The notes under the pieces are model-generated. The model was not told where the DNA came from and searched no databases. It saw only the letters and a list, made by a program, of their open reading frames with translations. Both the position numbers and the translations under genes were made by a program. A DNA stretch of 64,000 bases from contig JACQKU010000011.1 of the NCBI GenBank assembly GCA_016204335.1, positions 541-64,540 on the forward strand, read 5' to 3'. This document shows positions 1 through 54,929 of the stretch, piece after piece. The stretch's first letter is position 1; each line of letters starts with the position of its first letter. The DNA is from Candidatus Liptonbacteria bacterium (lineage in GTDB: Bacteria; Patescibacteriota; Minisyncoccia; UBA6257; 2-01-FULL-56-20).

Positions 1-775
1 ACGGATACGGACGGCGCTGGATATTTTGGTGAATCAGGGATGCAAACTGACTTGCACGTTCGTGGACGCTTACGGCGCGGTCGGACACAAAGCGATTGAC
101 GCCGCGAACAAAGTTAAAGAAGAATACAAAGATAAAATCAAAATCTTAACCATCAGCCAGCCGATTGGCGGCGTACTTAATAAAGCCGAGCGGGAAATCT
201 ACGAGAGCGTGACCGCGAAATGCGACATTGTCGGAGGGCTTCCCTCAAAAGACCGGCCGAACGACAAAGAAGCAATGGATGTGATTTTCGGAATTGCCAA
301 AAATTTAAATAAGCCGCTCCACGTTCACATCGACCAGGAAAATAATCCGAACGAACGCGACACCGAGAAACTTGTCGCGGCAATCGAGAAACACGGCTAC
401 CAGGGACGCGCGGTGGCGGTGCATGCCATTTCCGTTTCCGCGCAACCCAAAGAATACCGGAAAGAAATTTACAAAAAAATGGCGGATGTCGGAATGGCGG
501 TTGCCGTGTGCCCTTCCGCCGCGCTCTCTATGCGCCAGCTCGACCAATATCAGGCGCCCGCGCACAACAGCATCGCCAACATTCCGGAGATGCTCGATGC
601 CGGAGTGACGGTTGGAATGGGCGTGGACAACGTCTGCGATTTCTACCAGCCGTTTCTTGACGCCGACTTCTGGGTTGAAATGCGTATGCTTCAGGAGGCC
701 TGCCGGTTTTATGATTTCGATGCGCTAGTCAAAATCGCGACCGAGAACGGACAAAAATTGTTAGGGATTAGCTGA
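1..775 (+). CDS. Amidohydrolase-superfamily metal-dependent hydrolase (cytosine deaminase/chlorohydrolase-like); 5' end cut by window edge
   Basis: Reading frame open to position 1; PLHVHIDQ metal-ligand motif and overall amidohydrolase-like composition; stop TGA at 773-775. Confidence 0.6.
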   Translation, partial: RIRTALDILVNQGCKLTCTFVDAYGAVGHKAIDAANKVKEEYKDKIKILTISQPIGGVLNKAEREIYESVTAKCDIVGGLPSKDRPNDKEAMDVIFGIAKNLNKPLHVHIDQENNPNERDTEKLVAAIEKHGYQGRAVAVHAISVSAQPKEYRKEIYKKMADVGMAVAVCPSAALSMRQLDQYQAPAHNSIANIPEMLDAGVTVGMGVDNVCDFYQPFLDADFWVEMRMLQEACRFYDFDALVKIATENGQKLLGIS

Positions 776-809
776 TTAGGTTTTAGCTTATCAGCTTACT
801 GGGGAAAAT

Positions 810-1172: not shown

Positions 1173-1200
1173 AAGCTAATCAGCTAATAAGCTAATTCCT

Positions 1201-3569: not shown

Positions 3570-3747
3570 CGGGTTTTCGGCCTGTGTGAGCGTAAATCAC
3601 CACCTCCCCTCTTGCATGATGTATGAGTCGCCACCACTTTTATATCCTGATTTGGTACAATTAGTCAACTATTTCTCATCTGCTATACTTCACAAAAGGG
3701 TCGAAATGGCTGGAACACTAATAACCTAAAACCTAACACCTGATTTT

Positions 3748-14379: not shown

Positions 14380-16161
14380 ATGAAGCCGGAAATACGGAGT
14401 TGTGAAAACTGTGATAGCCAGTTCACTATTGAGTCCGACGATTTTGCTTTTTATGAAAAAATCGACGTGCCGCCGCCGACATGGTGTCCCGAGTGCCGCA
14501 ACATAAGGAGAATGGCGTGGCGGGAGGAACGTTCGCTGTACCGCGGCACGTGCAAGCTCTGCAAAAAATCAATCATCAGCATACATTCGCCGGACGGCCC
14601 ATTTACCGTTTACTGCCGCGAATGCTGGAAATCCGACAAATGGGACCCGATGGATTACGGCCGGGACTACGATTTCAATCAACCGTTTTTTTCTCAATAC
14701 CGAAAACTTATGGAAGCCGTCCCCCGTCCCGCGCTCACCGGCATTAATGTAATAAACAGCGATTTTTCGCACGGATGCGAAAGCTGTAAAAACTGTTACT
14801 TCACCTTCTACAGCTGGCATTCTCAAGATTCGCAGTACTGCTATGGCCTCCTTCTCTCGCGAGACACCTACGATTCTTACGCTGTCGACAATTCGGACCA
14901 TGCTTACGAGTCGCTCCATTCCAATCGTCTCTATAAGGTTCGCTTCGGATACTTCGCAGATGATTGTCTTGACTCTTCTTTTCTTTTTGACTGCGTCGGC
15001 TGTTCGGATTGTTTCGGATGCGTAAATCTCCGAAAACAGAAATACTGCATGTTCAACGAGAAACTTTCAAAAGACGAGTACAGAGAGCAGATGGCATACT
15101 GGGATTTGGGAAGCTACGCGCGCCTGCAGGAAGCGAAAGAAAAGTTCCGTTCTATCTATCTTTCGACTCCACGCCGATTTGCCCATATACGAAATAGCCA
15201 GAACGTAACCGGCGATATTATCAGAGACGCAAAAAACTGCCAAACGTGTTTTACGGCTCTTGACGGCGTTCAGAACTGCAAATATGTATACACCGGCGGC
15301 TTGAATCTCAAGGATAGCTATGACGTGAGTGCCGGCGGAGACATGTCTGAACTGCTCTATGAAATTTACGGAGTCACGCAGTCCCAGCGATGCCTTTTTT
15401 CAGTGGGGGGAACCAATTCAATAGATACGCTCTATTGCGACTGGGCATATAACTCATCGAATCTTTTCGGATGTACGTCGTTGAAACATAAACGGTACTG
15501 TATCCTCAATAAACAATATAGCCGAGATGAATACGAAAAGCTTGTCGCCAAAATAAGACGGCATATGAACGAAATGCCTTATGTTGACCAAAAAGGACGA
15601 GAATACAAATTCGGTGAATTCTTTCCCGTGGAACTTTCCGCGTATGCCTATAACGAGACATTTTCATTCATATGGTATCCGAAAACAAAAGAAGAAACGC
15701 TCAAAGAAGGATGGAAATGGCAAGACCCCCAAGAACGTTCGTATCAGGTCACGGCGCGACCCGAAGATTTGCCTGACCATATCCGCGATGTTGCCGATTC
15801 CATTTTGAAAGAAACGGTTGGGTGTATGCATTTTGGGAAATGCAATGAACAATGCGCGACGGCTTTTCGCTTGACGACGGAAGAACTCGCTTTTTATCGC
15901 AAAATGAATATCGCTTTGCCTCGCCTGTGTCCAAACTGCCGATACGCCGAACTAAGGCGGTGGCGAAACAGCTTTCATTTGTGGAAAAGAAAATGCATGT
16001 GCTTGTCCTCTGAAGCTTTGGCGAAGGAGGATGCATACAAAAACACAATCTCGCATTTTCACGCCACCGATCCCTGCCCAAATGAATTCGAAACCACTTA
16101 TTCGCACGATAAGCCGGAAATCGTATACTGCGACCAATGCTATAAAGCTGAATTCTTATGA
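14380..16161 (+). CDS. Multi-zinc-ribbon Cys-rich protein of unknown function (homologous N- and C-terminal ribbon modules)
   Basis: 593 aa with at least 6 CxxC...CxxC units; N-term DFAFYEKIDVPPPTWCPECR mirrors C-term ELAFYRKMNIALPRLCPNCR; internal C-x2-C-x2-C repeats. Confidence 0.6.
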   Translation: MKPEIRSCENCDSQFTIESDDFAFYEKIDVPPPTWCPECRNIRRMAWREERSLYRGTCKLCKKSIISIHSPDGPFTVYCRECWKSDKWDPMDYGRDYDFNQPFFSQYRKLMEAVPRPALTGINVINSDFSHGCESCKNCYFTFYSWHSQDSQYCYGLLLSRDTYDSYAVDNSDHAYESLHSNRLYKVRFGYFADDCLDSSFLFDCVGCSDCFGCVNLRKQKYCMFNEKLSKDEYREQMAYWDLGSYARLQEAKEKFRSIYLSTPRRFAHIRNSQNVTGDIIRDAKNCQTCFTALDGVQNCKYVYTGGLNLKDSYDVSAGGDMSELLYEIYGVTQSQRCLFSVGGTNSIDTLYCDWAYNSSNLFGCTSLKHKRYCILNKQYSRDEYEKLVAKIRRHMNEMPYVDQKGREYKFGEFFPVELSAYAYNETFSFIWYPKTKEETLKEGWKWQDPQERSYQVTARPEDLPDHIRDVADSILKETVGCMHFGKCNEQCATAFRLTTEELAFYRKMNIALPRLCPNCRYAELRRWRNSFHLWKRKCMCLSSEALAKEDAYKNTISHFHATDPCPNEFETTYSHDKPEIVYCDQCYKAEFL

Positions 16162-16407: not shown

Positions 16408-16854
16408 ATGAGTAAGCCCAAAGTAAAAACCATAACGATTTGCAGCAGCGCTTCGTTTTTCAAGCAAGCCGTCGAAATGGAAGCGAAGCTGAAAAAATTG
16501 GGATTCAAAGTGGAATTGCCGCCTACCGCCTTGAAAATGAAACGGAGCAATGATTTTAATGTGCTACATTACAAAACATGGTTTAAAAATCCGGACGACT
16601 ATAAGAAAAAAGGTTTTCTGCTTAGAGAGCACTTCAATAAAGTCATACGAAGCGACGTAGTGCTAATTTTAAATTATGAAAAACATGGGATTAAAGGATA
16701 TATTGGCGGGAATACTCTTATTGAAATGGGATTTGCATTTCACTACAAAAAACCCATTTACATCTTGAATCGGATATCGGGATTGCCTTACAAAGAAGAA
16801 ATACTGGGTTTCCAGCCAATCTTCATCAATGGAGATATCAAGAAAATAGTTTAG
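16408..16854 (+). CDS. Nucleoside 2-deoxyribosyltransferase-like / DNPH1(Rcl)-like protein, low-GC gene
   Basis: 148 aa; ITICSSASFF N-terminal nucleotide-binding strand and GGNTLIEMGFAFHYKKPIY with conserved Glu typical of NDT/Rcl fold; gene about 38% GC versus about 50% surroundings. Confidence 0.45.
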   Translation: MSKPKVKTITICSSASFFKQAVEMEAKLKKLGFKVELPPTALKMKRSNDFNVLHYKTWFKNPDDYKKKGFLLREHFNKVIRSDVVLILNYEKHGIKGYIGGNTLIEMGFAFHYKKPIYILNRISGLPYKEEILGFQPIFINGDIKKIV

Positions 16855-20574: not shown

Positions 20575-21093
20575 CTACTGTGGAATTGTAAACGTTCCGT
20601 ATTTTGTCCGCACCCTGCGTCCTGAAAAACCCCTCCCATTTCTCGACGACTGCGGGCCGGGCGAATATATTCTCTTCTTGCGTTCAGTTTTTCCCCGCTC
20701 ATAATAGCTCCTGTACTTTTTTTCGTTCAGCGCTTTTTTTATGCCGCTTATAGTCTGATGAGTAAGCCAAAGCTCTTCGCCGATTTTACGATAGCTCGTT
20801 CCTGCAAGAATGCGATCTATCGCGGCCGCCCGGCGCAGAAGAAGTGAACGCTCTTTGGCGGTAATAAGAAGTTCAAGTGCAGTCGAAAGTTTTTTCGGCT
20901 CTCGCAAAATTGTAAACTTTGCAATCAAAGTCCGCCAGACATTTTCTTCCCACGCTGAACGGGAAGAAAAACTTGCAAGGAGAGGTATACCACGAATCGC
21001 AGCCGCGGCCTCATTATTTCTCAGCTCTATTTTTTCTCCTGTTTTCTTCACGCGATTTTTTCTCCTGTTTTCTTCATCTCCTGTTTTCTTCAT
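20575..21093 (-). CDS. TrpR/YerC-family helix-turn-helix regulator with Lys/Arg-rich N- and C-terminal tails
   Basis: Central TAKERSLLLRRAAAIDRILAGTSYRKIGEELWLTHQTISGIKKAL resembles Trp-repressor/YerC HTH; 5' end contains three tandem copies of GAAAACAGGAG-ATG/GTG (RBS plus start); alternative in-frame GTG start at 21051. Confidence 0.6.
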   Translation of the reverse strand: MKKTGDEENRRKNRVKKTGEKIELRNNEAAAAIRGIPLLASFSSRSAWEENVWRTLIAKFTILREPKKLSTALELLITAKERSLLLRRAAAIDRILAGTSYRKIGEELWLTHQTISGIKKALNEKKYRSYYERGKTERKKRIYSPGPQSSRNGRGFSGRRVRTKYGTFTIPQ

Positions 21094-21111
21094 ATGATAG
21101 AGTATAGCATA

Positions 21112-21152
21112 CCGCTATGCCATAGCATAGCGGTATGCTATGGCATAGCGGG
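21112..21152. repeat. 41-bp palindromic repeat, copy 2 (immediately 5' of regulator gene start)
   Basis: Exact match to 20526-20566; ends 19 nt upstream of ATG 21093. Confidence 0.9.
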
Positions 21153-21201: not shown

Positions 21202-21250
21202 CCATTGCTATAGTTCCATGGCTATAGTTTCCATTGCTATAGTTCCATGG
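21202..21250. repeat. Tandem 14-15 bp repeats CCAT(T/G)GCTATAGTT x4 at the 3' end of the PfkB kinase gene
   Basis: ccattgctatagttccatggctatagtttccattgctatagttccatgg; on minus strand each unit reads ATGGAACTATAGC (ATG...TAG mini-frame); overlaps stop codon of 21237..22226. Confidence 0.8.
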
Positions 21251-22226
21251 CTGACAGCTCCAAGGAAGGCAATTCCATCCCAAAACTCTCTTTGTAGCGA
21301 CTGCGCGCTTCGGAAAAAGAAATCCGGTATTCCTGCGTGCCGTATGCTTCGATGGCTCGCGCGGCGATGACGCCCGCGAACCGTCCCGCTGTTTCAAGCG
21401 GCCAGCCCGCAAGAAACCCTTTAATAAAGCCCGCGCGATACGCGTCGCCCGCGCCTGTCGGGTCAACGACATCCTTTGCCCGCGCCGGAGGCACCTTAAT
21501 TATTTTTTCTTTTGTCCGTACGCTGGAACCCTTTTCGCCGAGCGTGGTAATAAGAATTTCCGAACGCTCGAGCACATCTTCTTCCGTCCAGCCGGTTTTT
21601 TCCAAAACCAAAGCAAGCTCGTAATCGTTGGCGATAAAGACATTCGCGCCGGTTATTCCGTTCCGGATGTCATCCGGGGAAAGCGCGGGAATCTGCTGGC
21701 CCGGGTCGAAAATAAAAGGAATGTTCTTTTTCCGATACAGCGCGGGCAATCGGCGCATGTCGTCAATGTTTCCCGGAGCGATTACGGCAAACGAACCGGC
21801 CGGAATCTGCTCCTCTTTTATTCCACACGAGTGCGCCATCGCGCCGATGGAAAGCGCCGCAATCTGATTGTCGGCGCGGTCAGTCATAATATTCGAAAGA
21901 GTCGTGGGTTTGTCGGAAACTACATGGACAAAATCCAAACTTACTCCGCTCTTTTCCAGCCGCTCGCGATAATGCCCGAAATCCCTGCCGGCGCTCGCGA
22001 GTACCGCGGGTTTTTCTCCGAGAAGCGCGAGACCGTAAGCGATATTCCCCGCCGTGCCGCCGAAATGCTCGCGAAGATTTTCAGCGACAAAACTTAAATT
22101 CAAAGCATGAACTTTGCCGGGCATAATGTGGTCGCTGAAGCGGCCCGGGTATTCCATTATTTTGTCGTACGCGAGAGAACCGGAAACTAAGATGCGCATA
22201 CCGGATAGTATAACTCCAATAAACAA
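21237..22226 (-). CDS. PfkB-family carbohydrate/nucleoside kinase (ribokinase or adenosine kinase-like)
   Basis: GGTAGNIAYGLALLG and DPTGAGDAYRAGFIKG motifs of PfkB family; adjacency to ahcY suggests adenosine kinase role (inference). Confidence 0.8.
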   Translation of the reverse strand: MFIGVILSGMRILVSGSLAYDKIMEYPGRFSDHIMPGKVHALNLSFVAENLREHFGGTAGNIAYGLALLGEKPAVLASAGRDFGHYRERLEKSGVSLDFVHVVSDKPTTLSNIMTDRADNQIAALSIGAMAHSCGIKEEQIPAGSFAVIAPGNIDDMRRLPALYRKKNIPFIFDPGQQIPALSPDDIRNGITGANVFIANDYELALVLEKTGWTEEDVLERSEILITTLGEKGSSVRTKEKIIKVPPARAKDVVDPTGAGDAYRAGFIKGFLAGWPLETAGRFAGVIAARAIEAYGTQEYRISFSEARSRYKESFGMELPSLELSAMEL

Positions 22227-22392
22227 TTTTTGACAAAATATCTTCTTTGTTCTATTTTGTTTTCAGTTCTTTCAAATATCCTTGAGGCACAAGAGCCCGG
22301 AAAATTGCGCTTCCTGGTTGCTGTGTCTCAGGGACATATATGTATATGTATGTAGCGACTAGTACACTCTCCAACCGGAAAGGGGTGGTGTA

Positions 22393-22695
22393 ATGAGCAA
22401 TAAACACAAGAATCGCATTCCACTGATCGAAGCGATGGAAGCGGTAATGAGGGAAGAGGCGCGGAAAGACTACAGTATCGTCCGCAACTACTGCCCTGGG
22501 TGCGAGGTGAACGCCGACCCGTTCGCGGAACTTTTGCAGGAATCGTGGTGCAGTTCACACAAACCCTCGTTGGAGGGAGACAAGGACAAGAAAGTTCAAA
22601 GCTTGCTTGGAAAACAACTCTACAACTCCACCGAAGGCGACGGAGAAACCGGCAGAGCGTATGCCGAATCCCTTAACCGAAAAAAGGAGGCGTGA
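22393..22695 (+). CDS. Hypothetical protein, first gene of a GC-rich 5-gene cassette
   Basis: 100 aa; GGGGTGG RBS-like motif 8 nt upstream; elevated GC versus flanks. Confidence 0.4.
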   Translation: MSNKHKNRIPLIEAMEAVMREEARKDYSIVRNYCPGCEVNADPFAELLQESWCSSHKPSLEGDKDKKVQSLLGKQLYNSTEGDGETGRAYAESLNRKKEA

Positions 22696-22927
22696 GATGG
22701 CGAAGAGCGAAGCGGGGAAGAAATACGCGCAGAAGAACTACAGCTCCACCCACTCGAGCATCCGCGTGCAGGTAAACAGGCAGTCCGACCCCCCCATCAC
22801 GCTCGAGGAGAAGCTGGATGTTGTCAGGTTCTACTCCTACGTGGTGGACGGGGAGCCCGAACCAGTCTCGCAAGGCAAACCCGTCATCGAGGTCCCGGCG
22901 GAACTCGCTCGCTACTTCAACTACTAG
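22696..22927 (+). CDS. Hypothetical protein
   Basis: 77 aa; strong AGGAGG RBS 6 nt upstream of ATG 22696. Confidence 0.5.
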
Positions 22928-23090
22928 AGCGCGTCGTGAGAATCCTCCGGGGTTTTCGGGCGGGGTTCGTGGCTTTCCACGCCTCATACTTTCGGCTGCA
23001 AAGCAAGTGCTGTGGGGCAAAAATCGTCAAGCTCCGCGACCGCATCTGTTTTCATTGCGGCCGCAGGACAACCTGAAAGGAGACGACGAT

Positions 23091-23210
23091 ATGGATTTCT
23101 CGCCGAGGTGTACAACGTGCGGCTGCGACCAACGAATCCTCTGTCAGAAATGCAAGGAAGGGAGGTGTCCGAAATGCTCGCGCCGAGCGAACGGAAAAAA
23201 TTCGGAATAG
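23091..23210 (+). CDS. Small Cys-rich zinc-finger peptide (39 aa)
   Basis: MDFSPRCTTCGCDQRILCQKCKEGRCPKCSRRANGKNSE with 8 Cys; AGGAG RBS upstream. Confidence 0.4.
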   Translation: MDFSPRCTTCGCDQRILCQKCKEGRCPKCSRRANGKNSE

Positions 23211-23418
23211 TACGTGAGCATGTCTCTGACTTCCAAAGGAAGGAGGTGAAGCCCGGATTGGCTATTGTAACTGCAATAGCCATCATTCTGGGTTGTCTTG
23301 TTGTGTGGTTCTTCGGAACCGGGCGAGACGCCCGCGAGATTCCTGTCCAGACTCGCGGTTCAAACGGTTAAAACGATCCATCGGCCCAACAACCCCTAAC
23401 CCGCGAAGGAAAAACTCC

Positions 23419-23838
23419 ATGAGCTGGCTCACCGCGTGCTTTTTGGCAGGGCTGTCGTACGCGCTCTTCACGCAGTACGTTCTGTTCGTGTTCGTGGCCG
23501 GCGACTCCGAAACCAAGAAGGAGTGGAAAGCGGACCGGCTCCAGTTCCACTTCGAGGCGTTATTCTTCTGGCCCGGGGTATTGATGTTTTCATTGAACCC
23601 GAACTGGAGAGCACTGGGCGTAACGTGGGTCGTCTGGATCTGCGTTGTCGTGCCCTATCTTTCCTATGTGTTCGTGGAACACTGGATCATCTCCGCCCTG
23701 ACCTTCGTTGGCTTCACCATCGTCGTGCCGTTCGCAGTAGGAGTGGCGGCAGTAGTGAAGATGATGACGGAATTGGAAAAAGGAGAGGAAGAATACGACC
23801 AGCACCTCGCCGAGTACTACATAGTCGCTCACAAATAA
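23419..23838 (+). CDS. Hypothetical 4-TM membrane protein
   Basis: 139 aa from MSWLTACFLAG; GAAGGA RBS; followed by GC-rich terminator-like hairpins 23840-23900. Confidence 0.5.
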   Translation: MSWLTACFLAGLSYALFTQYVLFVFVAGDSETKKEWKADRLQFHFEALFFWPGVLMFSLNPNWRALGVTWVVWICVVVPYLSYVFVEHWIISALTFVGFTIVVPFAVGVAAVVKMMTELEKGEEEYDQHLAEYYIVAHK

Positions 23839-24096
23839 CCCTAGCCCTCCGCCTGTGAGGCAAAAACAGGCACGCGCCCCGGCATGAGAATCATCATGTC
23901 GGGGCGAGCAATTTAAATTGGTTGCCCTTATCGAATTTTCACCGTCTGGCATAAATTTATTTTATGTATGAAGTATCGGAAAAACAAATCTTTTGATATT
24001 TAAACGAACTACTCCCGCATGGACCAATGATAGCGTCCACGCGGGAGCAAATAACTCAAATCGGGAATGGCTCCTTCCGAGGCGATTTCGGCTATT

Positions 24097-24597
24097 CTAC
24101 TTCTTGCAGCCGTTGGGTTCCGGGAACCCGAAGAGGGTGCCGATCGGCCATGTCCGCTTCTTCCACCAGATGAGGTCCAGACGGCGACTACGCGCGTCGC
24201 TCTCGAGCGACATGACGACGCTGTCGCCGTTCGGATTGTCCTCCCAGGGCTGCATCAGGAGGACGATCCGCCCATGGTTGCCTCGCGGGCGCTGGAGCGC
24301 TCCGATCAAGCCATGCTCGTAGAGCGGCCGCGGCAGACGACGTCCGACGTCCCTGAGCACGTACTCCGAGCTCACCGGCATCTTGTAGCTAATGAGCAGG
24401 AGAAGAAGCGACCCGTCACACTTCCATTCTCGCATCGGGAAGTGTTCCTGGGTAATCCGGTGTTCCACCCAGGCATAGCCGCTCTGCTGGAGTTGAGCCA
24501 CGATCTGATCGGTCGTCACGTGGCCAGGGTTCGTGAGCCGGAGAACCCCTTCTGCTTGCCTGCTGCCAATTACCTTCCTAGCCGTCGCCACCGCCAT
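24097..24597 (-). CDS. Hypothetical protein (GC-rich, unknown family)
   Basis: 166 aa ORF, about 60% GC, convergent with cassette above. Confidence 0.45.
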   Translation of the reverse strand: MAVATARKVIGSRQAEGVLRLTNPGHVTTDQIVAQLQQSGYAWVEHRITQEHFPMREWKCDGSLLLLLISYKMPVSSEYVLRDVGRRLPRPLYEHGLIGALQRPRGNHGRIVLLMQPWEDNPNGDSVVMSLESDARSRRLDLIWWKKRTWPIGTLFGFPEPNGCKK

Positions 24598-24792
24598 AGT
24601 CCCCCTCCTCGTCTTGAGTGAGTATTTCGCCTTGAACGGTTAATCGCTTACAGCCCTCAATATCCAAAAAGGGTGCTGGAGGCTGCAAGCGACTCGCCTT
24701 AGCCAAGTATCATATGAATTTTTAAAGTTGCTATCTTACCAACAAACTTATAGTAAAAAATTTTTATAGTCAACTTGCCAAATAATCAACCT

Positions 24793-25986
24793 CTACTCCC
24801 CCGGCGGGAGAAGAACAATATTCTCGGGCCTGAAAATAACCTGCCGCTTTCCTTCTTCGACGACGCCGATATCAATAAGCTCATAACCGGCCTGTTTGCC
24901 GACTGAAAGCGTCCGCCCGACTTCTTCCGGCGGAACAAAAATATAATACCCGATACCCCAGTTAAACGTTTTGAGGCAATCTTGCAGGGAAACGCCGATT
25001 TCGCTCATAAACTGAAAAATCACGGGGACGTTTGTCCACGTATGAATGCGATATGTGAACTGCCGCTTGTCGAACGCCAGTTTGCCGACACCGTCTCCCG
25101 TTCCGGGCAAAAGCGCGCACATTTCAACATTTTCTTTTTGAAGCGCCTCGATTAACGCGACATACGACCGCGTGGGAATGAGCGCTTCTTCGCCGAGCGT
25201 TTTTCCGTTCGGAAGTTTTGTGAGAAATTTGTCAGGAAGTTCGAGCGCGCGTTTTATCAAAAGCGAAATGCCGTTCGCGTGGATGCCCGACGACGTAACG
25301 CCTATGATACGGCATCCCGGCTTCAATTTTTTTCCCGTGATAATTCTTTCTTTCGGCGCGATGATTCCCGTCACGCATCCTGAAAGCGAGGGCGCGCTTT
25401 TGACGGGCGGTTCCGGTTTGAGCAAATACCGGAGAGCAGGCGACTCGCCCGCAGGCAGAGCCATTCCGACTTCTTTGCATATTTTGAAATATCCTTCCGC
25501 GAGGTCGCTGGCCCGTTTTTCGTCCGCGAACCAGGCGCTGTCCCCGACCGCCACTTCGTCCGTGAACACAACCGGCATCGCCCCCTGCGCGATTACGTCG
25601 TTCGTCGCCATAAGCGCCGCGTCAATCGCGATGCCTTCGTAATATGTTCCATTTGCTCCGCGCGAAAATTCACTCTCAGCTCCCAACATACTTCCGCGTT
25701 GTTCCGCGTTCGGTCTGCGTTGTTCTGCGGCCGCGGTAGCGGCATTAGCGTACATCCACTCCGCGATCCAATTTTTGTTGCCAAGCCCTTCCTGCGTACT
25801 GCACCACAAATGAGGAAAATTCCCGCGGTATTCGAACACGCCGCCGTGCGCGTGCAATACTTCCCCGTTAATGTACACATCGCGCCGGTTCGGAAACAAG
25901 AGCGTCCGCTTGCCCATTGCAATCATCTTCTGCTTGAACGGCTCCATCACGCCGTAATCCACTCCCGATTTCGCGTACTCGCTCAT
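24793..25986 (-). CDS. purM: AIR synthase (PurM)-related protein, probable phosphoribosylformylglycinamidine cyclo-ligase, with short in-frame direct-repeat insertion
   Basis: 397 aa PurM-like N- and C-domains (SGVDYG..., GIAIDAALMATNDVIAQGAMPVVFTD); located in pur cluster; divergent from canonical PurM so assignment is moderate. Confidence 0.55.
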   Translation of the reverse strand: MSEYAKSGVDYGVMEPFKQKMIAMGKRTLLFPNRRDVYINGEVLHAHGGVFEYRGNFPHLWCSTQEGLGNKNWIAEWMYANAATAAAEQRRPNAEQRGSMLGAESEFSRGANGTYYEGIAIDAALMATNDVIAQGAMPVVFTDEVAVGDSAWFADEKRASDLAEGYFKICKEVGMALPAGESPALRYLLKPEPPVKSAPSLSGCVTGIIAPKERIITGKKLKPGCRIIGVTSSGIHANGISLLIKRALELPDKFLTKLPNGKTLGEEALIPTRSYVALIEALQKENVEMCALLPGTGDGVGKLAFDKRQFTYRIHTWTNVPVIFQFMSEIGVSLQDCLKTFNWGIGYYIFVPPEEVGRTLSVGKQAGYELIDIGVVEEGKRQVIFRPENIVLLPPGE

Positions 25987-26085
25987 GTTTAGCTTATTAG
26001 GTTATTAGCTTACTAGATTTAGGCAATAAAAATTGTGATGTTCCAAAATCTTATTCTCTTATTCGCGCGAATAGGAAAATAAGAC

Positions 26086-42744: not shown

Positions 42745-42830
42745 AATGCAAATATCAAAATGGAAAATGACAGATAAAAATGTAAAAATTTTGAATTTTA
42801 CATTGTCATTTTGAACTTTGATTTTTAATT
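42745..42830. repeat. AT-rich inverted-repeat intergenic element, family 2 (copy 1 of 3)
   Basis: caaatatcaaaatggaaaatgacagataaaaatgtaaaaa...tttacattgtcattttgaactttgatttttaatttttga; related copies at 56149-56262 and 62685-62798. Confidence 0.7.
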
Positions 42831-43238
42831 TTTGATTTTCTTTATACGTTCTGCAATTTCACGGATTGTTTCTTTCGGCTGATTATCGACCACTGAATGG
42901 ATTGAACCGCCGCCGTCATTTTGAAATCGCGGAATGATATGAATATGAAAATGCTCAATGGTCTGGCCGCTCGCTTTGCCCTGATTGATGCCGATTGTAA
43001 ATCCATCCGGCGCAAGAACCTTCTGCAATAATTTCGTCACATTCCTGACTGCGGAAAAGAGCGGCGCAAGTTCGCCTTCTCCCAAATCAAGAATGGTTTC
43101 GGCGTGTTTCTTCGGCATTACCATGCTGTGCCCAAGGGCAATCGGATGAATATCAAGTATCGCGAACGCGCCGTCATCCTCATAAATGATTTCTGACGGA
43201 ATCTCCTTATTGCCGATTTTGCAAAAGAGGCAGTCCAT
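42825..43238 (-). CDS. HIT-family nucleotide hydrolase
   Basis: Histidine triad HFHIHIIPR. Confidence 0.85.
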   Translation of the reverse strand: MDCLFCKIGNKEIPSEIIYEDDGAFAILDIHPIALGHSMVMPKKHAETILDLGEGELAPLFSAVRNVTKLLQKVLAPDGFTIGINQGKASGQTIEHFHIHIIPRFQNDGGGSIHSVVDNQPKETIREIAERIKKIKN

Positions 43239-43243
43239 AATTT

Positions 43244-43355
43244 TAGAAATTGGTTGTTAGAAAATAGATATTGGTAATGTAAAATGGAAATTAGAAATTA
43301 ATTGATTTTCTATTTTCCAGTTTCTAATTTCTATTACTATTTTCCAATTTCCAAA
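43244..43355. repeat. AT-rich inverted-repeat intergenic element, family 1 (copy 1 of 2)
   Basis: gaaattggttgttagaaaatagatattgg...attttctattactattttccaatttccaa; second copy 54843-54929 with same termini. Confidence 0.7.
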
Positions 43356-49386: not shown

Positions 49387-50007
49387 CTAGAACTGTATTA
49401 CAATCGAGCCGGTAGTCGTTGAGTAATTAATCTGAGAAGACGTTGAGAATTGATTATTAACGGTGCTTGCCGGCCCGTCCTGCCCGGGGCCGCCCGACCA
49501 GTCGGTTTGGCTGAACGCATTATTCATAAAACGAGTCAGATACGTCTGAATGCTGCTTGTCGTTCCATTCTGCCAACCGTAAACTACCGTAATTTTTTGA
49601 GTCGAAGGGTCGTCGACGCCTCCGGTTGAGATAATATTGCCGCTTGCGTCGCGGCCGACGTTGTTTATGTAAAAATAGCGCGTGTAGGTCGTGGTTGAAA
49701 CAGCTATTGTCTCTTCGCCTGCCACGGCGGCAAACGGCGATGTGCTGGTGGTAAGATGATAGCGATTGGACTGCCCTTTGTTCAAATCATAAATAATGCG
49801 CCAATCGGCCTCGCTCGAAACACGGACGTTTTCCAGAAGTTCCTTTCCGATTGCGGCGCCGACCTGAATTCTATTTGCCTGTGCATTTGAACGCAGTGAG
49901 GGAATAATGATGCTTGTCGCGCCGATTATAAAAATCGAACCGACCGCCAAGGCAATAAGAATCTCGACAAGGGACTGGCCTTTTTCAGAACACGGAAATT
50001 TTCTCAT
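49387..50007 (-). CDS. Type IV pilin-like protein (prepilin signal KGQSLVEILIALAVG)
   Basis: Class III leader with Gly-1/Glu+5 and hydrophobic alpha1-N helix. Confidence 0.7.
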   Translation of the reverse strand: MRKFPCSEKGQSLVEILIALAVGSIFIIGATSIIIPSLRSNAQANRIQVGAAIGKELLENVRVSSEADWRIIYDLNKGQSNRYHLTTSTSPFAAVAGEETIAVSTTTYTRYFYINNVGRDASGNIISTGGVDDPSTQKITVVYGWQNGTTSSIQTYLTRFMNNAFSQTDWSGGPGQDGPASTVNNQFSTSSQINYSTTTGSIVIQF

Positions 50008-50048: not shown

Positions 50049-53000
50049 CTACTGTACCAATCCCACGGCATTAATCGTGATTGTGGAAGTGGCCACGACC
50101 GTCCCGTTGTTGCTCGCCAAAGGATTGTAGGAATAAACATCGCCGCCGAATATGTCCGCCGCCAAGTTGCTTGAAGGATATGTCGCAGTCGGCGTTCCGG
50201 CGCAGGTTGAGTTCCCTGCCCATACTGCAACGCTCCCGCCGCCGGAATCGTAATCGACCGGCACTTGCCCCGAATAAGCGGAGATGTCCAACGTTGAAAG
50301 GGTTCCGCAAGAGATGACCGTGCCGGCGCTGTTCCGAACCGCCCACGAACCGCCTGCCGGCAAGCCGTTCAACGTAATAATCGGCGAGCTGTAAAACGCG
50401 AAATTGTCGTATGTCATAGTGACGCCGCCGGCGGCGGACGATGCCGCAAGCCCCAAAAATCCCGCTTCGGAAAGCGAGAAATCCGCGGTGGAAAGCGCCG
50501 CGCCGCCGTTGACCCACGACTGGAGCGATGTGCCGGAAATATAGCCGCGGAACTGGTAAAAAGTGTCCGCGGCAAATGTAAACGCCGAAGAGATAATCGT
50601 TCCGTATGAAGAGGAAATTGTCTTGCCGATTAATTCCGCGCCGTTTTGGAAATCGCCGCCCGCAATATGATATTTGTTCGCGCCGCTATCCGCGCGCAAA
50701 ACACCGCCGTTTTTTCCCGCGCTTGCTCCAACCGCGCTCGCTTTCATTTTAAACTCAATTACCCCGTTCGTCCGGTTCTGGCCTGCAACGTGAATCTGCG
50801 CCGAAGAACCGGAAGCGGGCGTCACCGCAAGCCGGCTCGCGGAAACGCTCCAGCTTCCCGAATCCGTCGTAAAGGCGCCGGAGGTTGTCGTGAAACCGTT
50901 GCACGTTCCGGAATCCGTGAAAGTATTGAACCCTGCGGGGTCCTTTGCCGAGGCCTTCCAGTAATACGTCGTGTTCTGGCTCAAGGCGTTTTGCGCCGTG
51001 TAAGTCCCCTGCGCGCCAGAAGCGTAGCAGTCGTTCGCGCTCACGCATGTCGCGTTCTGCCCCGACCAGCCGGTTTGCGATACGCTTTGGTCGTTTGTTT
51101 GAAAAACGGCGGTACACGCGGAATTCGAATAAATCGTCACTTTATATTGCAGATTATCCGAATTAATGTCTGTAGCCGTCATTTTAAAAACCGGCAAGAC
51201 GCTTAAGTTTTGCGAGTCGTTTGCTGGAGAGTCCTGTGAAGGCGGGTTCGGCGGGCTGCTTGCCGCGCTGGTCGTCACGCTGGAACTCGCGCTATACGGC
51301 CCGTCGCCGGAAGCGTTCGTGGCGCGTATGCGGTAGTAGTATGTCGTTCCGGGCGCAAGCCCGCTGTCGTTCGTGGAGGTGTTCGTTATGCCGGAGGCGA
51401 TCTGCGCGAAAACCTGGCTCGAAGTGGCTCTTTCGACTTTATACGAAGTTGCGCCTCCGGCAGGCGCGGCCCAGTTTACGGTAAGTGATACCGCGGAAAC
51501 ATTCTCATAGGCGGGAGTTCCCGGAGTTCCAGGCACGGTCATCCCGCTTCCCGCCGCGTTCAATGCCGTCTCAATCAAATCCTGGTTTCTCGATTTAACT
51601 TTGAACGCGTAGGTGGCGTTTGATTGAAGATTTTTTATTTGCAGAGTATCGAGCGTGGCATCCGACATCCAAACGGCCGCCGTGCTCGTAGCTCCGACAG
51701 ATGTCACCCAAAAACCCTGCCAGTTGGGGTCGCTCGGACTCGTCGATGAAGTGAAGACGGCGAACTGGGTTGTGGGAGAAGATGCCGGGTTGCCGTTCTC
51801 GGCGTTTGTGAAATTGAGAGTGGAAGTTGTTGTTAATGAAAAGGTTGCTGTTCCGGGAGTATTGGCAAGCGTGTAGATAGAACTCGAAGCGGAAGCGGTG
51901 CCGGTGTTTGGAGTTGGAGAGACGGAATCCCTCGCCTGAACTTGATAGGCGTAGCACTTGTTGGCTTGTAGATTGGAGTTTGTGTATGAGGTTGAAGTTT
52001 GCCAGTTTGATGACGCTCCTCCTGTGCCGCCGTTCGATGAACAAGTATTAAAAGTGAAAAGATAGTTTACGGGCGTAGTAGAATCGGAGCCGGTTGTGGC
52101 AGTCATGGAAATTGATGATGTGGATGCCGCGGCTGGAGCGGACGAAAAAGTCATCGGGTTCGGAGTTGGAGGAGATGCGTCTAGTGTCGTGAACGAAACC
52201 TCGCCGCCGTATGAATACCCCGCGCTGTTATGCGCGTATGCGCGGGTGTAGTAGGTGGTACTGCCGGTGAGTCCAGTCAGCCCTTTGGTGTATGCCCCTG
52301 CGCCGAAAGCTCCCGCGTCGCTCGCTGAACTCGCGTAGCCAGAGGAACCCGGCGCGACGTTGCCGGGCAAAGCACGCGAGGCGGTATCATAAACAAAACC
52401 TCTTGTATCAGCATTAGCCCCGCCTGTAGCCGTGATGTTGCCGTTGCCAGTCGCGGTTGTTGCGGTGATAGATGAAACGGCTTGGGTCGTGACGGTGGGA
52501 AGATTCGCCAACGTCGTGAACGAAACCTCGCCGCCGTATGAATACCCCGCGCTGTTATGCGCGTATGCGCGGGTGTAGTAGGTGGTTGCGGCATTCATGC
52601 TATTGAGTGTCGCCGTGAAGGCACCTGTCCCAAAATCACCGGCGGTGATAACAACGGACTCATATCCAGAGGAATACGTGGGGACGTTGCCAGGCAAAGC
52701 ATGCGATGTGGTGCTGTAGACAAAGCCGCGCGAATCCGCATTCGCTCCTCCTGTAGCCGTAATGTTACCGTTGCCGGTCGCGGTTGTTGCGGCGATGGAT
52801 GAGGCGGCTTGGGTGGTGACGGTCGGGACGGTGACGGAGACCGTGTAAGTGAGGACGACGCGCCCGGCGGCGCCGGCGCCACCATTAACAGCGAGAGCCG
52901 CGCCCCCGCCACCCCCACCGGGCGCATTTCCTGGCCCGGCGGCACCACCACCGCCAGTCCCACCGCCACCCCCGCCATTTCCTTCTCCTATGCCACCAGT

Positions 53001-53609
53001 ACCCGCCACGAAACTTGCTCCATTGCCACCATTACCTCCGTTTGCAGAACCAGTAGCAGACCCACCACCGCCACCGCCACGAGTACCAGAACCAGTGAAC
53101 CCCGCGCCACCATTACCACCGCTGAATTTTGTCGCTCCAATACCACTTGCAGCCGCACCACCCGTTCCGGGCTCTGCTACCCCACCGCCCTTCGCCAACA
53201 CTGTCGCCTCTCCTACAGCGCCTGGGCTAAACCAACTATCTCCACTTGGGGTACCAAGGACTACTCCACCCGCTCCCACGGTAAGACTATAATTCTGTCC
53301 TGGCGTCACGGTTACTGTTGCCTTAGAATATGCGCCACCGCCAGCCCCGGTACCACCGGCGCCCGACACGCCACCCGCGCCGCCGCCGCCCCATGCCTCA
53401 ACCGTTACACTCGTAACGCCCGCCGGGGCCGTCCAGGTGACAGAGGAATTGAAAGTTTCAACGATTGCATGGGCGTCAGGCACTCCGTAAAAAATGCCTC
53501 CGTATACAAAAAAGAGTAAGACAAGAGCGCGGAAAAGATTAAATTTACAACGGCGAAATTTTTTCAAGATAAATTGACTTAATAATTTTTTTAAAAAATC
53601 ACTGGGCAT
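50049..53609 (-). CDS. Giant secreted Gly-rich / FN3 / LamG-like domain protein, probable pilus-associated adhesin
   Basis: 1186 aa; signal anchor, GGxGG-rich N-terminal region, two near-identical about 105-aa tandem domains, FN3 domain (TSYKVERATSS...YYYRIRATNASG), C-terminal concanavalin-like domain. Confidence 0.7.
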   Translation of the reverse strand: MPSDFLKKLLSQFILKKFRRCKFNLFRALVLLFFVYGGIFYGVPDAHAIVETFNSSVTWTAPAGVTSVTVEAWGGGGAGGVSGAGGTGAGGGAYSKATVTVTPGQNYSLTVGAGGVVLGTPSGDSWFSPGAVGEATVLAKGGGVAEPGTGGAAASGIGATKFSGGNGGAGFTGSGTRGGGGGGSATGSANGGNGGNGASFVAGTGGIGEGNGGGGGGTGGGGAAGPGNAPGGGGGGAALAVNGGAGAAGRVVLTYTVSVTVPTVTTQAASSIAATTATGNGNITATGGANADSRGFVYSTTSHALPGNVPTYSSGYESVVITAGDFGTGAFTATLNSMNAATTYYTRAYAHNSAGYSYGGEVSFTTLANLPTVTTQAVSSITATTATGNGNITATGGANADTRGFVYDTASRALPGNVAPGSSGYASSASDAGAFGAGAYTKGLTGLTGSTTYYTRAYAHNSAGYSYGGEVSFTTLDASPPTPNPMTFSSAPAAASTSSISMTATTGSDSTTPVNYLFTFNTCSSNGGTGGASSNWQTSTSYTNSNLQANKCYAYQVQARDSVSPTPNTGTASASSSIYTLANTPGTATFSLTTTSTLNFTNAENGNPASSPTTQFAVFTSSTSPSDPNWQGFWVTSVGATSTAAVWMSDATLDTLQIKNLQSNATYAFKVKSRNQDLIETALNAAGSGMTVPGTPGTPAYENVSAVSLTVNWAAPAGGATSYKVERATSSQVFAQIASGITNTSTNDSGLAPGTTYYYRIRATNASGDGPYSASSSVTTSAASSPPNPPSQDSPANDSQNLSVLPVFKMTATDINSDNLQYKVTIYSNSACTAVFQTNDQSVSQTGWSGQNATCVSANDCYASGAQGTYTAQNALSQNTTYYWKASAKDPAGFNTFTDSGTCNGFTTTSGAFTTDSGSWSVSASRLAVTPASGSSAQIHVAGQNRTNGVIEFKMKASAVGASAGKNGGVLRADSGANKYHIAGGDFQNGAELIGKTISSSYGTIISSAFTFAADTFYQFRGYISGTSLQSWVNGGAALSTADFSLSEAGFLGLAASSAAGGVTMTYDNFAFYSSPIITLNGLPAGGSWAVRNSAGTVISCGTLSTLDISAYSGQVPVDYDSGGGSVAVWAGNSTCAGTPTATYPSSNLAADIFGGDVYSYNPLASNNGTVVATSTITINAVGLVQ

Positions 53610-54346: not shown

Positions 54347-54838
54347 CTATAGGGACTGGCGATTGAAATCATCAAAGAAAATTTTGCCGCTTGAGGCGCG
54401 GCTGACATTCGCCTCCAATGCAGGACCAACGGTGCTGAAAAGCTGCAATGTCACCGATGTTGATGCTGAAGGAATTCCCGAGATTTGAGCGAATGTGACA
54501 TCGAGCGTGCCGCTTGCGGAGAAATTCGCGGTCGCGTAGCGAACGTTAACGGGCAAGGAGTAATATCCCACGGTGTTTGAAGAATTGTAAGCGGTCTTAA
54601 ACAAGGCGTAGAAAGCGGGAATTGCGACGTTGTCAAAATGAACGCCCCAGACGGTCCCGCTGTCCTGCGCAACCGAGCGGCTTCTTGCTTCGCGAAGCAA
54701 TGCAACTATGTTTTGAGTGGCGCCGTTCAAATCATTCTGCCTTCTTGCGCCGAACAGACTCAGAAAAGTGACGGACGCCAAAATTGCGGTTATGCCGACA
54801 ACAACGAGAAGTTCCATCAATGTCGTTCCTTTTTTCAT
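54347..54838 (-). CDS. Minor type IV pilin (FimT/GspH-like)
   Basis: Prepilin leader KKGTTLMELLVVVGI (G-1, E+5) and GspH-like RQNDLNGATQNIVALLREARSRSV. Confidence 0.7.
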   Translation of the reverse strand: MKKGTTLMELLVVVGITAILASVTFLSLFGARRQNDLNGATQNIVALLREARSRSVAQDSGTVWGVHFDNVAIPAFYALFKTAYNSSNTVGYYSLPVNVRYATANFSASGTLDVTFAQISGIPSASTSVTLQLFSTVGPALEANVSRASSGKIFFDDFNRQSL

Positions 54839-54842
54839 TTTT

Positions 54843-54929
54843 GAAATTGGTTGTTAGAAAATAGAAATTGGAAATTTGAATTTGGTCAACTATTTTCTAT
54901 TACTATTTTCCAATTTCCAATAACTACTT
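54843..54929. repeat. AT-rich inverted-repeat intergenic element, family 1 (copy 2)
   Basis: Shares 5' GAAATTGGTTGTTAGAAAATAGAAATTGG and 3' TATTTTCTATTACTATTTTCCAATTTCCAA termini with 43244-43355. Confidence 0.7.

Follow-up and report, generated by a model that had tools for sequence, protein, structure and literature searches.

Where does a group of small genes with strong ribosome-binding sites come from, when the genome around it mostly does without such sites? This question was raised by a 2.4-kb islet at positions 22290-24700 of a 64,000-nucleotide stretch of contig JACQKU010000011.1, called the window throughout the text. The contig belongs to the metagenome-assembled genome (MAG) of a member of 'Candidatus Liptonbacteria', an ultra-small groundwater bacterium of the Patescibacteria (candidate phyla radiation, CPR). 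Within the window, the islet is located between pfkB and purM in a long purine-biosynthesis gene cluster. It carries the open reading frames (ORFs) O1 to O5 on the + strand, all of which had been listed as co-directional small ORFs in an initial annotation, a tentative further frame O2b, and the convergent O6 on the - strand. Four of these ORFs are annotated at NCBI as hypothetical proteins (HY433_01825-01840, 'Candidatus Liptonbacteria' MAG). We consider it likely that the islet is a small, chromosomal genomic islet which was acquired horizontally and is at least partly derived from a phage. Horizontal acquisition is supported by the translation signals, the GC content at third codon positions (GC3), the k-mer signature, the absence from 80 related purM loci and the link to a phage contig named L086. 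A phage or plasmid source had been proposed initially; foreign composition, ribosome-binding sites and the phage context of L086 agree with the former, while a plasmid part found no match in PLSDB.

Shine-Dalgarno signals and composition of the islet

Strong Shine-Dalgarno (SD) sequences were found at 5 of the 7 islet ORF starts, with duplex energies to the anti-SD sequence of -8.7 kcal/mol or lower. The individual values were -11.1 kcal/mol for O1, -11.6 for O2, -8.7 for O3 and -12.3 for O6, and O4 reached -15.1 kcal/mol, or -16.0 from an alternative start. The SD sequence of O5 is weak (GAAGGA, -5.7 kcal/mol). Among the native genes, whose upstream regions are AT-rich, a value of -8 kcal/mol or lower was reached by a single start out of 57, compared with 2.3% of random positions. 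In a blind scan of the window, SD-led gene starts were clustered in the islet only. The initial annotation had assigned near-consensus SD sites to all of the small ORFs and had described the native genes as mostly lacking them. The latter was confirmed, the native starts being at background rate; the former holds far beyond chance for O1, O2, O3, O4 and O6, with O5 as the exception. The loci of other Parcubacteria were found to be likewise SD-poor. We are aware that the positive controls of that comparison are only partly convincing, as non-CPR loci scored by the best-start rule gave 54-67% for Gemmatimonadaceae and one Aminicenantes locus and 23% for a 'Clostridiales' MAG. In a study by Tsurumaki et al. 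(PMC9297842), only 48% of the 16S rRNAs of Parcubacteria were found to contain the anti-SD motif, and the SD-poor native starts fit such reports of many Parcubacteria without the motif. An rRNA gene or 16S rRNA 3' end was found neither in the window nor in the retrieved loci.

The compositional anomaly of the islet lies in GC3 and k-mer signature, not in bulk GC content. A GC content of 58-60% had been stated initially, but 55.1% was measured for 22290-24700, compared with 49.4% for the whole window and a local range from 43% to 63%. About 10% of the 2.4-kb windows are equally GC-rich, so the bulk GC content of the islet is not significant. GC3 amounts to 0.86 in O2, 0.76 in O5 and 0.80 in O6, versus a mean of 0.55 +/- 0.06 and a maximum of 0.64 for the 57 native genes. 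With z-scores of +5.3, +3.7 and +4.3, respectively, each of the three lies above every native gene. The dinucleotide distance delta* of the islet was 159, versus a mean of 62 +/- 25 (rank 5-6 of 309 windows, about 3.9 standard deviations over the mean), and the tetranucleotide distance took rank 10-11 of 309. A k-mer and codon-usage check had been recommended with the initial annotation, and GC3, dinucleotide and tetranucleotide signature all marked the islet as an outlier. Only one other dinucleotide/tetranucleotide outlier was found in the 64 kb, a repetitive fn3/Gly-rich surface-protein gene. The two units of the islet are separated by an AT-rich, native-looking spacer (about 23930-24005), which had not been listed before.

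The fn3/Gly-rich gene is the strongest compositional outlier of the window. It encodes an 1186-amino-acid (aa) protein with fn3 and glycine-rich domains (50049-53609, -), and the adjoining gene (49387-50007, -) has a type IV pilin N-methylation motif. The 1186-aa protein is probably surface- or pilus-associated rather than the product of foreign DNA.

These results bear on a native origin, in which the ORFs would be fast-evolving lineage-specific or de novo genes of the Liptonbacterium. CPR genomes are rich in orphan small proteins, the bulk GC content of 55% lies within the range of the window, and neither mobility genes nor boundary repeats were found. Nevertheless, we regard this explanation as very improbable: the ORFs are outliers against the 57 native genes in SD sequences, GC3 and k-mers, they interrupt an otherwise housekeeping purine cluster, and homologues whose flanks are also conserved come from a phage contig and from unrelated samples.

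The O1-O2 module and its counterpart on a phage contig

O1 (22393-22695, +; 100 aa; NCBI HY433_01825) is preceded by the SD sequence GGGGTGGTG and encodes a soluble protein with a zinc-finger-like core CPxC...CSxH and a conserved C-terminal GETGRAYA..LNRKKE. One homologue was found, P0008, with 64% identity (E 1e-18), which is encoded on contig L086. The ratio of nonsynonymous to synonymous substitution rates (dN/dS) between the two is about 0.07, and the differences are distributed 20/15/40 over the codon positions, i.e., mostly in third positions. O2 (22697-22927, +; 76 aa), likewise soluble, starts 1 nt past the O1 stop, and its SD sequence AAGGAGG is located inside the last O1 codons. The C-terminal 23 aa of O2 show 57% identity (pairwise E 2e-8) to the L086 ORF after the O1 homologue, with the shared pattern KP[VL]I...ELARYF[NH]Y, and at the L086 O1/O2 junction the same AAAAAGGAGG SD sequence is embedded in the end of O1. 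An assignment of O2 to the ribbon-helix-helix proteins was considered and rejected, since the putative strand is missing in the L086 homologue.

L086, from sequencing run SRR22387766, opens with the 3' part of a gene for a gp32-like single-stranded DNA-binding (SSB) protein. The PHROG matches of this gene are phrog_8542 (E 1e-11) and phrog_1192 'single strand DNA binding protein' (E 5e-8); tblastn found similar sequences in isolated phages of Flavobacterium and Cellulophaga (E 3e-20), and an IMG/VR phage contig shows 47% identity to it; L086 was therefore taken to be phage DNA. The SSB gene is followed by three small overlapping genes, the O1 homologue, the O2 homologue and a 58-aa zinc-ribbon ORF, which occupies the place of O2b and O3 of the window. 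Behind it a different gene is found, and O3-O5 are not conserved there with O1-O2. O2b itself (22936-23076, +), a tentative 46-aa Cys4 ORF with a GTG start and no SD sequence, was missing from the initial annotation. It corresponds in position to the zinc-ribbon ORF of L086, and the stop-to-start junction CTACTAG...GTGA.AATCCTC in front of it is kept at the DNA level. No protein-level alignment between O2b and the L086 zinc-ribbon ORF was obtained, and this weakly supported frame may be a decaying ORF. Since the order O1-O2-zinc ribbon recurs on a phage contig, the left part of the islet was interpreted as a phage module. Judged from these alignments, O1 and O2 with a zinc-ribbon ORF behind them form a conserved module under selection that is carried by phages; in L086 it is located in an early/replication region. 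Homology to phage genes, as expected for a prophage remnant, was accordingly found for O1 and O2, whose relatives are adjacent on L086, a single contig.

Further genes, promoter candidate and probable terminators of the first unit

The remaining genes of the + strand unit encode a zinc-ribbon-like peptide and two membrane proteins. O3 (23091-23210, +; 39 aa; SD sequence AAGGAG) had been introduced as a zinc peptide with 8 cysteines; the 39-aa Cys-rich ORF is present, with 7 cysteines counted (CxxCxC, CxxC, CxxC). From its Cys pattern and SD sequence only, O3 was judged to be coding. Its exact sequence was not present in the protein collection, and no homologue was found. O4 (23174-23371, +) encodes a predicted single-pass membrane peptide with one hydrophobic core (residues 24-51), of 65 aa from ATG 23174 (SD sequence GGGAGGTG) or of 37 aa from TTG 23258 (SD sequence AAGGAGGTG). 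The 65-aa form is the choice of the gene caller in the Logan assemblies. What had been described as a transmembrane (TM) peptide of about 37 aa is thus found again as a single-TM peptide ending at 23371, whose length may be 65 aa. The strong SD sequences GGGAGGTG and AAGGAGGTG (window 23160-23260) are located 80 nt apart in the same reading frame, each before an in-frame start; either two isoforms are made, or one of the sites is fortuitous. The sole family matches of O4 were non-significant, namely the holin family phrog_526 (E 0.15) and, for the TM segment, the PADLOC model RmrA (E 0.006, 14 bits). O5 (23419-23838, +; 139 aa) has a weak SD sequence, and its GC content by codon position (0.53/0.34/0.76) supports the frame. 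It had been described as a 4-TM protein; 3-4 TM segments were predicted, based on three clear hydrophobic cores and one weaker core, followed by an acidic C-terminal tail. A single-sequence AlphaFold model was all-helical with extended helices (predicted local distance difference test, pLDDT, 71; predicted template modelling score, pTM, 0.31), and a BFVD fold search with this unreliable model gave no match below E 2.5.

This first unit comprises five or six tiny genes and is closed by a cluster of hairpins. A sigma-70-like promoter candidate (TTGACA-17-TATTTT, 10/12 matches) was found at 22230-22258 (+) in the AT-rich stretch that separates PfkB and O1, about 135 nt ahead of O1. It is a candidate only, as shuffled sequence gave at least as many sites in the promoter scan as a whole. 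The stretch 23851-23925, located between the O5 and the convergent O6 unit, folds into three stem-loops in a row, with a GC-rich stem of 13 bp among them. Their folding energy is -41.4 kcal/mol (z = -4.4), and 0 of 200 shuffles were as stable. The stem-loops are the probable terminator or terminators of the O1-O5 operon. Terminator-like GC hairpins had been placed at 23840-23900; stable hairpins are indeed present, but a clean U-tract is lacking, and one terminator-like site of the - strand was found at 23886-23871.

For this unit we propose delivery by a phage, in which it would have been a moron-like cargo module or would be the last remnant of a degraded prophage. If expressed, it would be transcribed from the promoter candidate in the AT-rich intergenic region and translated via SD pairing. 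If small phage early and moron genes are taken as a model, the zinc-finger proteins could serve as nucleic-acid- or protein-binding regulators, and, as their architecture suggests, the membrane proteins O4 and O5 might act at the cell envelope, e.g., in superinfection exclusion. This functional step, with regulators on one side and O4/O5 at the envelope on the other, is a guess and rather doubtful.

A stronger functional claim would be that the islet is a working small-protein system of the toxin/immunity, abortive-infection, superinfection-exclusion or holin-like kind, in which O4 and O5 would be the membrane effectors, and regulation or sensing would fall to the zinc-finger proteins. Its compact co-directional operon with O1 and O2 1 nt apart, two membrane proteins and an own terminator, the strong purifying selection on O1 and the very weak phrog_526 and RmrA hints for O4 would suit such a system. 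We consider it quite unlikely, since no significant match was obtained in PADLOC, Pfam, PHROGs, NCBIfam or the PDB, no endolysin and no recognisable toxin fold were found, and the structure models were uninformative. The five genes are not a conserved system, because O3-O5 are not kept with O1-O2 in L086. The RmrA match as the only PADLOC hit is not credible for defence, and regarding type II toxin-antitoxin systems, no Pfam or NCBIfam domain was found in O1, O2 or the other ORFs; the tight coupling of O1 and O2 is not diagnostic. The toxin/immunity, defense or membrane-stress role suggested initially is unsupported.

O6 and its flanking hairpins

O6 (24097-24597, -; GC 62%) is the convergent, GC-rich ORF of 166 aa that had been described initially. 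It encodes a soluble protein and is preceded by the SD sequence GAGGAGGGGG. The NCBI annotation is shorter (140 aa); the homologue described below supports the 166-aa start. Downstream of the O6 stop, a 15-16-bp hairpin is found at 24010-24049 (-; z -5.1), which is the probable O6 terminator. About 45 nt upstream of O6, a long imperfect hairpin is located at 24642-24694 (-; -38.7 kcal/mol, z -3.7), and the comparison with a second locus assigns it to the O6 unit and not to purM. This flanking pair was missing from the earlier list of features. A search of 5.8 billion clustered proteins yielded one homologue, P0002, with 68-70% identity over the full length. It is encoded on L085, a 675-nt contig of 61% GC from a German groundwater metagenome (Hainich well H51, ERZ1292627), which shows 76% nucleotide identity to window positions 24010-24661 over 661 nt, both hairpins included. 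Between L085 and the islet the hairpin stems are kept while the loops differ, and the downstream stem has a G-U to A-U change. A dN/dS of 0.33 was determined, with differences of 29/30/54 by codon position.

This pattern of conservation argues that O6 is a real gene which, as a hairpin-SD-ORF-hairpin unit of its own, is mobile or passed on independently of O1-O5. For O1, O2 and O6, the alignments show purifying selection or conserved relatives. Because the O6 unit recurs elsewhere by itself, the islet is not one system. The single cassette of the initial annotation has to be replaced by no fewer than two convergent units, namely the O1-O5 operon and, independent of it, O6.

Two assignments of O6 were tried and rejected: an NlpC/P60-like Cys-His protein, since the homologue does not share the candidate His108, and a hairpin-flanked TnpA of the IS200/IS605 type, for which neither an HUH motif nor a Pfam match was found. 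No peptidoglycan-hydrolase domain was detected by Pfam in O6 or its neighbours. An AlphaFold2 model of O6 from a 2-sequence alignment reached a pLDDT of 38 and was unusable. The structure prediction that had been recommended for the small proteins was hence uninformative for O5 and O6.

Distribution and origin of the islet

All six islet proteins are singletons at 90% identity. A phmmer search of 1.84 billion representatives found no homologue of O5 but itself, and scans of JGI metagenome contigs with O6 and the O1 alignment found no relatives. Sequence searches in Pfam, PHROGs, PADLOC, NCBIfam and the PDB gave nothing significant for any islet ORF, as the initial annotation had expected from inspection by eye. 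The nearest purM relatives are all from Patescibacteria MAGs, and in 80 related genomes none of the islet genes was found within +/-10 kb of purM. Absence from sibling genomes had been suggested as a check; the islet is indeed missing at these 80 loci, but even the closest available genome is no more than 75% identical in purM, and pfkB and purM are not neighbours in it. Judged by the databases covered, the islet appears strain-specific.

The abrupt compositional break in a metagenome-assembled genome raised the question whether a foreign fragment had been joined to the contig during assembly or binning. Across independent assemblies of three sequencing runs from the source groundwater (SRR12113383-85), both junctions were found again: the pfkB-O1 junction was reproduced in those of SRR12113383 and SRR12113384, the O6-purM junction was also spanned by the SRR12113383 assembly, and the encoded proteins were 100% identical across the per-run assemblies. 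As the junctions recur with identical products, the arrangement is not an assembly artefact, and we regard a chimera as extremely improbable.

We are aware of a series of observations that speak against an acquired, partly phage-derived islet. An empty pfkB|purM site was not found, and the pfkB-purM adjacency occurs in no retrieved relative. Domain searches revealed no integrase, transposase or phage structural gene within the islet or about 20 kb around it; there is no tRNA at the islet, no Rfam element was found in the islet scan, and no attachment site (att)-like direct or inverted repeats of at least 9 nt were found at its boundaries. Scans of IMG/VR with O1, O2, O5, O6, the O1 alignment and two degenerate DNA patterns (GETGRAYA and ELARYF[NH]Y-stop) gave chance matches only, and tblastn with O1-O5 and O6 against GenBank phages and PLSDB plasmids gave no match, so that the search for homologous cassettes in phage and plasmid databases, as recommended before, ended without one. 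O3, O4 and O5 have no relative at all, by which their phage origin and even their expression are putative. The phage link consists of one 1.8-kb contig only. Within this contig, the half with O1-O2-zinc ribbon (1006-1795) has 52% GC and SD sequences at all four starts, versus 43% GC and mostly no SD sequences in the SSB half (1-1005). Because composition and SD usage differ within L086, the O1-O2-zinc ribbon module may be a phage passenger and not phage-born.

The latter difference is also the best argument for a cellular donor with SD sites and higher GC3, e.g., the bacterial host or a neighbour of the CPR cell, from which the DNA would have been taken up by natural transformation; the likeness to L086 would then be hitch-hiking cargo. 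The lack of phage hallmark genes and of an integrase around the islet is compatible with it, as is the location of the single O6 relative on a 61% GC contig of unassigned origin. Still, 5.8 billion clustered proteins provided no cellular home for O1 or O6, nor did 1.84 billion representatives for O5, and the sole contextual information, from L086, is viral. Tiny overlapping zinc-finger genes are, moreover, typical of phage early regions. A cellular donor was judged unlikely on this balance, and at least partial phage derivation is preferred.

Comparison with known mobile elements

With phage morons, cargo modules and cryptic prophage remnants the islet shares the organization in small self-contained transcription units with promoter candidate, SD sequences and terminator hairpins, the composition unlike the flanks and the orphan genes, and its O1-O2-zinc ribbon part is shared with a phage contig, beside an SSB gene. 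Unlike a prophage remnant, it has no surrounding prophage, integrase or att site, and one phage contig makes up the link. None of the prophage hallmark genes (integrase, terminase, capsid, tail, lysis) was found among the islet ORFs by PHROG and Pfam searches, and the flanks consist of purine housekeeping genes. From groundwater Patescibacteria, both genomic islands and prophages have been described, with IslandViewer-type islands from 2.7 kb upward (PMC12455944). Like those islands, the islet is a compositional outlier, apparently strain-specific and part of an ultra-small groundwater CPR genome; unlike them, it is with 2.4 kb just under their size range, contains no metabolic or mobility genes and is marked by SD sequences, not by bulk GC content.

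O4 and O5 resemble holin/lysis cassettes and superinfection-exclusion proteins in that small single-TM and multi-TM proteins with charged tails are placed side by side in phage-derived DNA. The likeness is architectural only, as in contrast to holin/lysis cassettes the islet has no significant holin hidden Markov model match (phrog_526 being the best), no endolysin and no relatives. Superinfection-exclusion membrane proteins are represented, e.g., by T4 Imm and P22 SieA. Integron cassettes and CALIN arrays likewise consist of promoter-poor orphan ORFs, each with an imperfect hairpin, and O6 recurs as hairpin-ORF-hairpin. In contrast to integron cassettes, reading of the sequence revealed no attC R''/R' cores (RYYYAAC...GTTRRRY) in the islet hairpins, there is no integrase, and the units are convergent. 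The protein families are new, while the islet as such is of an ordinary type, namely a small genomic island or a cassette of phage cargo.

Flanking genes and further features of the window

The islet is bordered by pfkB (21237-22226, -; Pfam PfkB) and a purM-like gene (24793-25986, -; Pfam AIRS/AIRS_C). The pfkB side of the cluster contains guaB, purA, purH, ahcY, a trpR-like gene and pfkB, and the purM side contains purM, purB, purC, purE, purQ and purL. Two proteins without Pfam domain are encoded between guaB and purH, one of 593 aa (14380-16161, +) and one of 148 aa with only 37% GC (16408-16854, +). Directly upstream of the trpR-like gene (20575-21093, -), two overlapping perfect inverted repeats of 17-18 nt (ATAGCATACCGCTATGC / GCATAGCGGTATGCTAT) were found at 21104-21151, possibly the operator of this gene.

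Tandem 8-nt units (CTAATAAG / CTAATCAG / CTAATAAC) occur at 25989-26016 (-), 1176-1195 (+), 768-794 (-) and 3718-3729 (+). They are found directly in front of the purM start codon and that of a Lyase_1 gene, and in addition at two other sites. With 8 matches versus 3.2 expected by chance the statistics are weak; in a genome without SD sequences, the units could represent a leader element or the site of a regulator. An identical 17-mer, TTCTAACAACCAATTTC, is located at 43246-43262 (-) and 54843-54859 (-), in each case a short distance upstream of a small gene (42825-43238 and 54347-54838, unrelated to each other), and is possibly a shared promoter or operator.

Implications for translation and phage biology of the Parcubacteria

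Taken alone the finding is modest, adding one more orphan-gene island to a CPR genome. It provides a lead to an uncharacterised phage lineage which shares genes with the Liptonbacterium. In Parcubacteria with SD-less native genes, foreign or phage DNA is marked simply and sharply by clusters of strong SD sequences, which worked here where bulk GC content failed. The islet is also a handle on the question whether the ribosomes of CPR lineages reported to lack the anti-SD motif still use SD-led mRNAs. The most far-reaching version, for which we see little probability, would be a host lineage that has largely given up SD-led initiation and may lack the anti-SD sequence, combined with an islet that is a working SD-dependent phage module. 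In it, O1 and O3 together with O4 and O5 would form an undescribed small-protein system, e.g., for prophage-style superinfection exclusion, and the strong SD sequences would give privileged access to the CPR ribosomes. If this were true, the locus would be a natural test of SD reading by Parcubacteria ribosomes.

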